Positions 1-3,127 of a DNA stretch of 64,000 bases are shown piece after piece. The notes beneath the pieces are model-generated. The model did not search any database. It was not told where the DNA came from and saw only the letters and a list, made by a program, of their open reading frames with translations. A program made the translations under genes and the position numbers. Each line of letters starts with the position of its first letter. The first letter of the stretch is position 1. This DNA comes from Escherichia phage RB3. Where the stretch lies: the sequence record KM606994, one strand, 5' to 3'.

Positions 1-7
1 GAATCAA

Positions 8-625
8 GTGATTATTTCTAAATTTATTAAAGTGAAAATTGTACCATCAAATTTTAAACATTATCAATCAAAGGGTTATAAATTAACACCTCTTGGAGCG
101 GTTAAACATGGATTTAGGTATTATGAAATTGATGTTAAAGTTGAAGACATTAAAGGTAGTACCGCGTATGTAAAATGCCGTTGCGATAAATGTGGAATTG
201 AATATAACCAACGCATTGGAAGAAACACTGATATTTGTCGTGATTGCCGTCATAAAGATAAAATGCGCAATAATTCATATGGTTCCGCGAATAAAGGAAA
301 AACAGTAGAATGTATGCATGGCGTAAATCATCCAAGATGGAACCCAAATAAATCTGAAATGCGTGAATATATTTCATTGGTATATAAAGAAACTCGTAAG
401 CATAAGAAAATTTGGTCAAAATGGCCAAATGCTGATAAAATAGGAGTGTGTGGTACAAAAGGCGCTTACCAACTTGATCATAAGGTATCTATCAAATACG
501 GTTTTGATAATTTAATTCCTGCTAAAATAATTGGCGGTATTAATAATTTAGAAATAATCACTTGGGAATCTAACCGAGAAAAATCAAAAAGAAATAGTGT
601 AGATCTTTGGGATTTACTAGAATGA
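8..625 (+). CDS. HNH-family endonuclease, putative free-standing homing endonuclease; start uncertain, frame is open to window edge
   Basis: Zn-finger CxxC..CxxC pairs then HNH-like motif (QLDHKVSIKYG...NNLEIITWESNREK); GTG at 8 is only the ORF-finder start. Confidence 0.6.
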   Translation: MIISKFIKVKIVPSNFKHYQSKGYKLTPLGAVKHGFRYYEIDVKVEDIKGSTAYVKCRCDKCGIEYNQRIGRNTDICRDCRHKDKMRNNSYGSANKGKTVECMHGVNHPRWNPNKSEMREYISLVYKETRKHKKIWSKWPNADKIGVCGTKGAYQLDHKVSIKYGFDNLIPAKIIGGINNLEIITWESNREKSKRNSVDLWDLLE

Positions 626-632
626 TTCTAAA

Positions 633-650
633 GGCCTGTTTCGGCAGGCC
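633..650 (+). other. GC-rich hairpin downstream of HNH ORF
   Basis: GGCCTG-TTTCGG-CAGGCC; no T-run, possible RNA stability element. Confidence 0.4.
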
Positions 651-651
651 A

Positions 652-659
652 TATAAATA
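652..659 (+). promoter_or_regulatory. Late promoter TATAAATA (gene 19, distal)
   Basis: Exact TATAAATA. Confidence 0.6.
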
Positions 660-710: not shown

Positions 711-718
711 TATAAATA
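711..718 (+). promoter_or_regulatory. Late promoter TATAAATA (gene 19, proximal)
   Basis: Exact TATAAATA 15 nt before gene 19 ATG. Confidence 0.7.
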
Positions 719-732
719 CTACAGAGGCTAAT

Positions 733-1224
733 ATGTTTGTAGATGATGTAACACGAGCGTTTGAATCTGGTGATTTTGCTCGACCTAACTTATTCCAAGT
801 AGAAATTTCTTATCTTGGACAAAATTTTACGTTTCAATGTAAAGCTACTGCTTTACCAGCTGGTATTGTAGAAAAAATTCCAGTCGGATTTATGAACCGT
901 AAAATTAACGTAGCAGGCGATCGTACATTCGATGACTGGACTGTTACAGTAATGAACGATGAAGCTCATGATGCTCGCCAGAAGTTCGTTGATTGGCAAA
1001 GCATTGCTGCGGGGCAAGGAAACGAAATTACTGGTGGAAAACCTGCAGAGTATAAAAAGAGCGCTATCGTTCGTCAATATGCTCGTGACGCTAAAACAGT
1101 AACAAAAGAAATTGAAATTAAAGGTCTGTGGCCTACTAACGTGGGTGAACTTCAGTTAGATTGGGATTCAAACAATGAAATCCAAACATTTGAAGTAACT
1201 CTTGCTCTCGATTATTGGGAATAA
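733..1224 (+). CDS. 19: Tail tube protein gp19
   Basis: 163-aa ORF recognised as T4 gp19; two TATAAATA late promoters upstream; position before gene 20. Confidence 0.92.
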   Translation: MFVDDVTRAFESGDFARPNLFQVEISYLGQNFTFQCKATALPAGIVEKIPVGFMNRKINVAGDRTFDDWTVTVMNDEAHDARQKFVDWQSIAAGQGNEITGGKPAEYKKSAIVRQYARDAKTVTKEIEIKGLWPTNVGELQLDWDSNNEIQTFEVTLALDYWE

Positions 1225-2882: not shown

Positions 2883-3127
2883 TGGAAGGTTTAATTGAAG
2901 CTATTAAATCAAACGACCTCGTAGCCGCTCGTAAATTATTTGCTGAAGCCATGGCTGCAAGAACGATTGATTTAATTAAAGAAGAAAAAATCGCTATCGC
3001 TCGTAATTTCTTAATCGAAGGTGAAGAACCTGAAGACGAGGATGAAGATGAAGATGATGACGAAGATAGCGATGATAAAGACGACAAAAAAGACAAAGAC
3101 TCTGACGAAGACGAGGATGATGAATAA
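2882..3127 (+). CDS. 67: Prohead core protein gp67 with poly-acidic C-terminus
   Basis: 81 aa, [20 protein letters not shown]..., D/E-rich tail; position after gene 20. Confidence 0.85.

Follow-up and report, generated by a model that had tools for sequence, protein, structure and literature searches.

The window analysed here, a stretch of 64,000 nucleotides (nt) from Escherichia phage RB3 (sequence record KM606994), begins between the tail sheath gene 18 and the tail tube gene 19 and contains at this place a gene of the T-even 'ORF19.1' family that we regard as a probable free-standing homing endonuclease gene, from a divergent and uncurated branch of the HNH (His-Me finger) family. Its open reading frame (ORF) starts with a GTG codon at position 8, ends with a TGA codon at positions 623-625, and encodes 205 amino acids (aa) (Table 1). 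The first-pass annotation of this DNA had described an ORF of about 200 aa with paired CxxC motifs and an HNH-like core, and all the motifs that it quoted are present; the 5' end of the gene, which it placed perhaps beyond the window, lies inside. Positions 1-732 of the window are 100% identical to the corresponding region of phages RB5, RB6, RB7, RB9, RB10, and KRT47 and match KM606995.1 95993-96724, and we read the upstream sequence from KRT47, as an identical phage (window position 1 is position 3001 of the KRT47 sequence, L001). In KRT47, the TAA stop codon of gene 18 lies 38 nt upstream of the GTG, in a different frame, and the leader between them, mostly upstream of the window, consists in this order of TTGATAT, a GGGGC-UUCG-GCCCC hairpin (-11.7 kcal/mol, z -2.9), TATTCTC, and a GAGG Shine-Dalgarno sequence that ends at window position 1, 6 nt 5' of the GTG. 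Since gene 18 has its own stop codon, the frame changes, and the ORF has its own Shine-Dalgarno sequence, the ORF is complete and free-standing and only part of its leader falls outside the window. For the same reasons, we reject that it is an extension of gene 18, and the possibility that it could be the 3' end of a larger upstream gene, which the first-pass annotation had named as fatal to its proposal, fails.

The GTG start agrees with the PHROG profile phrog_5104 (function unknown), which matches the ORF protein with an E value of 1e-90 and begins at this codon, and with most homologues, which begin M-I-I-S/T-K. An in-frame ATG found 11 codons upstream lies within the leader hairpin and is replaced by GTG in Ptacy1496/N2 and by AAG in ECO07P1; given this lack of conservation and the starts of the profile and homologues, we rejected it as the initiation codon. 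Likewise rejected was a leader fold that would hide the ribosome-binding site, as this fold is not significant (z -0.8).

Table 1. Features of the ORF19.1 region in the window and contigs in which the same catalytic module occurs
Feature	Location	Strand	Remarks
End of the 5' leader: last G of the GAGG Shine-Dalgarno sequence and 6-nt spacer	1..7	+	
ORF19.1-type gene, allele 'type A'	8..625	+	Putative free-standing HNH-type homing endonuclease gene
N-terminal domain, ~residues 1-90: beta strands and zinc ribbon	8..277	+	Putative DNA-recognition module
Zinc-ribbon cysteines C59-x2-C62 ... C77-x2-C80	182..247	+	Homologue alignment
C-terminal putative catalytic domain, ~residues 105-205	320..622	+	Conservation, domain model
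HNH core, H-N-N type, residues 153-192	464..583	+	AYQLDH(158)KVSIKYGF...N(180)LEIITWESN(189)REK(192)
Right edge of the insertion	625..626	.	Shared with empty-site phages from here (ATTCTAAAGGCC...); the ORF stop abuts or overlaps the junction
Resident GGCCUGU-UUCG-GCAGGCC hairpin	633..650	+	-12.8 kcal/mol, z -3.7
T4 late-promoter motif TATAAATA for gene 19	652..659	+	Resident, outside the insertion
Second TATAAATA late-promoter motif upstream of gene 19	711..718	+	
Gene 19 (tail tube)	733..1224	+	Conserved downstream neighbour, followed by gene 20
Catalytic module between sheath and tube genes	L029, L030		IMG/VR contigs
Catalytic module directly 3' of the Gp23 major capsid gene	L031, L032		IMG/VR contigs
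Catalytic module between gp47-like (Metallophos) and gp46-like (SMC_N) genes	L039, L042		IMG/VR contigs

Genes 18 and 19 are separated by 763 nt here and by only 116 nt in T4, in line with the short T4 spacer described in the first-pass annotation; its further proviso, that T4 should have no homologue at the same position, also holds, since none exists in the T4 gene 18-19 region, which has only TACGGTGC(A) at the insertion point. The empty site reads TAA, then TAC(G/A)GTGCA, then TTCTAAAGG (this last part also given as TTCTAAAGGCC) in T4, T2, G28, EC121, QOTSP, and Sf21. Occupied sites have 645-657 bp in place of 8-9 nt of this sequence, with identical flanks. The resulting cassette of ~650 bp is self-contained, as it brings a UUCG hairpin and a Shine-Dalgarno sequence along with the ORF, and its boundaries are precise, with the stop codon of gene 18 on one side and the resident hairpin and gene 19 late promoters on the other. 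It is devoid of a late promoter of its own: a scan found TATAAATA in front of genes 18, 19, and 20 and at one place inside the gene 68 coding region, but nowhere before ORF19.1. Both TATAAATA motifs upstream of gene 19, as well as the resident hairpin that precedes them and that directly follows gene 18 in empty-site phages, are common to carriers and non-carriers. Scans for sigma-70 promoters and terminators that could belong to the cassette gave nothing above chance. The lack of a late promoter in front of ORF19.1 suggests that the gene is probably expressed by read-through of the gene 18 late transcript. Two UUCG-tetraloop hairpins bracket the cassette, the resident one on its 3' side and its own just past the end of gene 18. 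Since the cassette brings its own hairpin, such a structure is restored at approximately the same distance after gene 18, which suggests that it stands in for the gene 18 3' hairpin displaced by the insertion. These stem-loops might also serve as recombination joints, along the lines of the PeSL idea (PMC2839356).

The gene is present in a minority of close relatives and in two versions. Among ~500 Tequatrovirus-level records, 46 contain type A, the allele of the window, and 70 contain type B, whose carriers include T6 and PST (116 in total, ~23%), and all the Mosigvirus-type records sampled are empty. Such precise presence or absence between conserved genes is the pattern known for seg- and mob-type genes. 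A set of 17 partial type A matches was considered as a third allele and rejected, as they correspond to type B boundary matches. Type B is already on record as T6 ORF19.1, without an assigned function; it shares the locus, the leader, and the GTG start with the window gene and is 87% identical to it over the C-terminal 70 residues, which identifies the two as alleles, but only 35% identical over the N-terminal 130 residues. T6 and KRT47 (type A) have gp18 and gp19 proteins that are both 99% identical and ORF19.1 proteins that are 53% identical. At the nucleotide level, both alleles are near-identical in the leader and the ~18 codons that open the ORF, as well as over the final ~205 bp, in contrast with the ~45% identity of the middle ~390 bp, which encode the zinc-ribbon domain and the linker. 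When compared with KRT47, Salmonella phage S16 has identities of 77% for gp18, 77% for gp19, and 63% for ORF19.1, and Shewanella phage Thanatos-2 of 64%, 70%, and 62%, respectively. The ORF19.1 phylogeny disagrees with those of genes 18 and 19, a discordance that is also typical of seg- and mob-type genes.

The two alleles are distinguished, in addition, by a short segment of the neighbouring gene. We compared the flanks of 7 type A, 8 type B, and 6 empty genomes and found eight fixed differences in gene 18 between A and B carriers, all of them at -85 to -61 from the end of the stop codon. Each allele is tied to its own version of this 25-nt patch in 15 of 15 genomes (7/0 versus 0/8, Fisher p = 1.6e-4), and the type B patch changes gp18 ...YITL... 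to ...YIQL... (Thr to Gln). No fixed difference between A and B was detected in the region -800 to -86 of gene 18 or in the 680 nt downstream, and further upstream two carriers of the same allele resemble each other no more than do carriers of different alleles. Empty genomes have patches h1 (T2, EC121, and QOTSP), h2 (G28), or the densely synonymous h3 (T4 and Sf21). That A and B differ both in the putative recognition domain and in the 25-nt patch is the most interesting lead to emerge from this locus.

The encoded protein appears to combine a zinc-binding part with a nuclease-like one. The N-terminal domain, which is the part that differs between alleles, has three cysteines that are invariant in 29 homologues (C59, C62, and C77) and a fourth ligand that is C, or H in one clade; residues 1-90 are predicted to form beta strands around this four-ligand zinc ribbon, and the Pfam treble-clef zinc finger DUF4379 matches 8 of 29 relatives in one set and 23 of 148 in another. 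We infer that this zinc-ribbon domain is the DNA recognition part. The C-terminal domain consists of a G-x-N-H-P-R-W-N-P-N-K stretch, a long helix, and a predicted beta-beta-alpha core. In this core, D157, H158, N180, L181, N189, and K192 show no variation among the 29 homologues and reach at least 90% conservation across 148 cluster representatives, and the motif spacing is H-22-N-9-N; these are the canonical catalytic residues and spacing of the HNH/His-Me finger superfamily. The AlphaFold (AF2) models (pLDDT 84 for the whole protein; pLDDT 86 and pTM 0.73 for residues 96-205) predict a beta strand (154-158) that ends at D-H, a second strand (181-185) that starts at N180-L, and a helix (186-191) that holds N189, an arrangement that, as modelled, conforms to the beta-beta-alpha-metal fold of this superfamily. 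The G-x-N-H-P-R-W-N-P-N-K stretch itself (residues 105-115, nt 320-352), situated between the two domains, contains the invariant residues G105 and W111 and equals the catalytic motif in its degree of conservation.

Profile comparisons of the family point in the same direction. When the 148 relatives were scanned singly, 17 matched Pfam HNH_4 (best E 3.5e-4, 20.9 bits; cutoff 22) and 7 matched Pfam HNH (best 13.9 bits; cutoff 21.4), and in 10 individually examined members these sub-threshold matches fall on the YQLDH...NL motif. In an hhalign comparison of the family profile with the HNH domain of SpCas9 (sequence checked against the PDB), D157-H158 align on D839-H840 and N189-R-x-K on N863-R-G-K, with P 0.0035 and a probability of 9%. 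Relatives in which NUMOD3 repeats precede the same C-terminal module provide a further hint, NUMOD3 being a DNA-binding module typical of homing endonucleases. The predicted HNH identity thus rests on several weak lines that agree, namely the residues, the modelled fold, and the recurrent sub-threshold Pfam HNH matches, together with the Cas9 alignment and the NUMOD3 relatives. We consider it very likely that the protein has a His-Me fold.

Around the window gene lies a large family, with 37 clusters at 90% identity, 235 phage records detected by tblastn, and 6,295 representatives at 50% identity (E <= 1e-3) retrieved by a profile search of 1.84 billion proteins. ORF19.1 most likely comes from a large uncurated HNH branch, and our literature search found no experimental study of the family. 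In relatives, the same catalytic module is fused to NUMOD3, helix-turn-helix (HTH), DUF7487, C2H2, or other zinc-finger modules; separable DNA-binding modules and shuffling of this kind are, again, found in seg- and mob-type genes. The genomic contexts of these relatives, read in IMG/VR contigs, include three different junctions (Table 1). In contig L032 (2524-3739), the family member lies directly 3' of the Gp23 capsid gene and has a bona fide HNH_3 gene (E 1.4e-10) as its next neighbour, so that two endonuclease genes stand in tandem. In L039 (2572-3165) and L042 (2566-3171), an N-terminal HTH replaces the zinc ribbon, and the flanking genes are the gp47-like and gp46-like recombination nucleases. 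Contig L035 (2416-4065) encodes a 549-aa protein with a DUF4379 zinc finger, the family catalytic module, and ~300 additional C-terminal residues for which we found no Pfam match. Full-length homologues and closer relatives, by contrast with this variety of contexts, occur directly after the sheath gene in 12 of 12 examined cases from seven genera or groups, among them VR7 (annotated as gp19.1), S16, Bp7, Acinetobacter phage Melin, Thanatos-2, Sinorhizobium phage phiM7, Ptacy1496, and T6. This constant position is consistent with a homing element that remains linked to its target gene, and equally with a long vertical residence and repeated loss.

Several known systems resemble ORF19.1 in part. 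In function it is comparable to the T4 Mob proteins and I-HmuI. Like the T4 Mob proteins (MobA-E), I-TevIII, and I-HmuI, which are phage HNH homing endonucleases of Pfam HNH_3, it is encoded by a free-standing or optional gene between conserved phage genes, joins an HNH-type nuclease domain to a zinc- or DNA-binding module, and has a similar second half of the motif, NLE-x-x-T-x-x-x-N. It differs from Mob and I-HmuI in its reversed domain order, with the DNA-binding part N-terminal and the catalytic part C-terminal, and in the spacing of 22 residues between H and the first N, with two short inserted helices; HNH_3 (PF13392) gave no match in scans of the window protein and family, in which the HNH_3 gene of L032 served as positive control. 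In active-site sequence, the nearest relative is the HNH domain of Cas9 (Pfam HNH_4, PF13395), although ORF19.1 has no RuvC domain, guide RNA, or CRISPR context, and the likeness, with scores below threshold, concerns only the fold and the active site. The replacement of one homing endonuclease gene by another at the same locus has precedents in T4-related phages, with SegH/Hef among the examples (Sandegren et al. 2005, as cited in PMC2988022). As in SegH/Hef, different endonuclease versions occupy one locus in close phages, but the two occupants of the ORF19.1 locus are homologous, with a common leader, start, and catalytic domain and a swapped putative recognition domain.

Mob-type homing proceeds by double-strand-break or nick repair (PMC2988022), and the same mechanism is to be expected for ORF19.1. 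The zinc-ribbon N-terminal domain would recognise DNA and the C-terminal beta-beta-alpha domain would make a metal-dependent cut, in which D157 and N189 would probably bind the metal and H158 would act as the general base. During mixed infections, a co-infecting genome with no cassette, or with the other allele, would be cleaved by the enzyme close to the 18/19 junction or to the end of gene 18, and recombinational repair from the carrier genome would copy the cassette, together with a flank of 100 nt or less, into the cut genome. Carriers themselves would be immune thanks to the disruption of the junction of TAA with TACGGTGCA by the insertion, to the allele-specific patch located 61-85 nt before the end of gene 18, or to both. 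More tentatively, ORF19.1 may be a two-allele 'duelling' endonuclease, in which a shared catalytic domain is combined with swapped recognition domains and each allele has its own immune patch, and which would belong to a major unrecognised clade of HNH homing endonucleases; taken jointly, this is a possibility that we hold to be rather less than even. If so, each allele would cut genomes with the other patch or with the T4-type patch, leading to marker exclusion in the tail region among co-infecting T-even phages, and the clade, equipped with a portable C-terminal catalytic module, would occupy sheath/tube, capsid, and gp47/gp46 junctions across T4-like phages of many hosts.

The free-standing homing endonuclease in the tail module that had been proposed at first pass is therefore supported by the presence/absence pattern, the discordant phylogeny, the allele-specific patch, the modular relatives, and the HNH-like fold and motif, with mobility better supported than HNH identity. 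Several results nevertheless weigh against it. The window protein has no HNH match at E <= 1, and searches of Pfam, NCBIfam, and PDB sequences yielded nothing beyond zinc-finger noise, whether the query was the single protein or a family profile; a Foldseek search against the PDB found nothing, and the thresholds of the curated HNH profiles (Pfam HNH and HNH_2-5; NCBIfam) were not reached. No single-nucleotide polymorphism separates occupied from empty sites in the 1,980 nt of gene 18 and the 1,283 nt downstream; therefore, empty genomes with the h1 or h2 patch could be immune, or the patch could reflect simple linkage. The 15 carrier genomes behind the patch association are related to each other and constitute a small sample that is not phylogenetically independent. 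Finally, the strict position after the sheath gene, maintained out to phiM7, could mean that ORF19.1 is an old resident gene that has often been lost.

This last idea is the main rival explanation: an accessory gene of the tail or late module that is not actively mobile, has been inherited vertically behind the sheath gene, and encodes a nuclease or DNA-binding protein beneficial to the phage through competitor exclusion, degradation of host or parasite DNA, or anti-defence. It would account for the presence of the gene after the sheath gene in Tequatrovirus, Gaprivervirus, Gelderlandvirus, Dhakavirus, Acinetobacter Twarogvirinae, Thanatos-2, and phiM7, for the ORF19.1 identities of S16 and Thanatos-2 (62-63%), which are close to those of gp18 (64-77%), and for the absence of frameshifted or decayed copies among the 116 Tequatrovirus records; moreover, domestication of homing endonuclease genes is known (for instance, from PMC10448857). 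It is harder to reconcile with alleles whose N-terminal domains are 35% identical coexisting in genomes with 99% identical gp18 and gp19, with a clean empty site in the ~77% of close relatives that lack the gene, with a flanking patch specific to each allele, and with the occurrence of the same module at unrelated junctions behind other DNA-binding modules. We consider it unlikely, while noting that residence and homing are not mutually exclusive.

Two other alternatives concern the activity of the protein. It might be a catalytically dead zinc-ribbon regulator that binds DNA or RNA, with an HNH-like motif that is structural or due to chance, as the lack of any curated HNH model above threshold, the weak structural scores, and the asparagine in place of the canonical last histidine could suggest. 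However, conservation of D-H, N, and N reaches at least 90% across 148 representatives sampled from the 6,295 of the family, Cas9 and I-HmuI are active nucleases with an H-N-N variant of the site, the matches that do appear are almost exclusively HNH nucleases, and relatives carry NUMOD3; we accordingly regard a dead protein as quite improbable. An HNH accessory protein that works with the terminase in DNA packaging, like HK97 gp74 or the GVE2 and Geobacter HNH proteins, seems extremely improbable: T4, T2, and most Tequatrovirus do not have the gene and T4 and most Tequatrovirus still package their DNA, the gene is optional and has gene 18 between it and gene 17, whereas HK97 gp74-type proteins are conserved and indispensable partners encoded beside the terminase genes, and relatives are found at junctions unrelated to terminase genes. 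In addition, T4-type phages package DNA by a headful mechanism in which gp17 supplies the nuclease. A mobile homing endonuclease thus appears to us the most convincing explanation for ORF19.1. It would be an ordinary kind of element for T4-like phages, which are known to be dense in such elements, and not a new principle.

In T-even phages, homing endonuclease genes influence where recombination boundaries fall and which markers are excluded, and the classical catalogue of them (seg, mob, and intron-encoded genes) lists none in the tail module. No gene 18/19 element appears in a 2010 review of the mobile elements known from T4-related phages (PMC2988022). We found no paper on T-even gp19.1, literature matches to 'gp19.1' being concerned with phage SPP1. 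The proposed mechanism predicts a concrete cleavage region, and the pair of alleles with swapped recognition domains and matched patches offers a natural experiment on the co-evolution of endonuclease specificity and target immunity. The RB5 record has 763 nt without annotation between genes 18 and 19, as do those of RB6, RB7, RB9, and RB10, and elsewhere the gene has been labelled 'holin' (ZCEC14), 'putative head morphogenesis protein' (T6 AP018814 and SF2-1), 'type II restriction endonuclease' (Klebsiella Roth phages), 'hypothetical protein', 'HNH endonuclease', or 'homing endonuclease'. Because the gene is unannotated in RB5-RB10 and mislabelled elsewhere, a proper family model would correct hundreds of phage annotations. 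The S16 record (L006 2501-3121) has only the last 321 nt annotated (gp100.1); tblastn aligns the complete 205-residue protein at 62% identity, beginning at a GTG codon, and the annotation is therefore probably truncated rather than the gene decayed.

Some minor observations concern the region downstream of gene 19. Bp7 has a second annotated HNH endonuclease gene between genes 19 and 20 and its portal gene is annotated as two coding sequences (L009 3769-4350 and 4408-5630), and the portal annotation is also split in Ptacy1496 (L004 3789-5353); either a further mobile element or frameshifting near the beginning of gene 20 could be the cause. The portal gene also contains a segment that is very different in some carriers: at ~300-660 nt into gene 20, corresponding to offsets 900-1260 of the extracted segments, the mean pairwise divergence is 14-20% in the 8 carriers first sampled versus 1.5-2% in 6 empty genomes.
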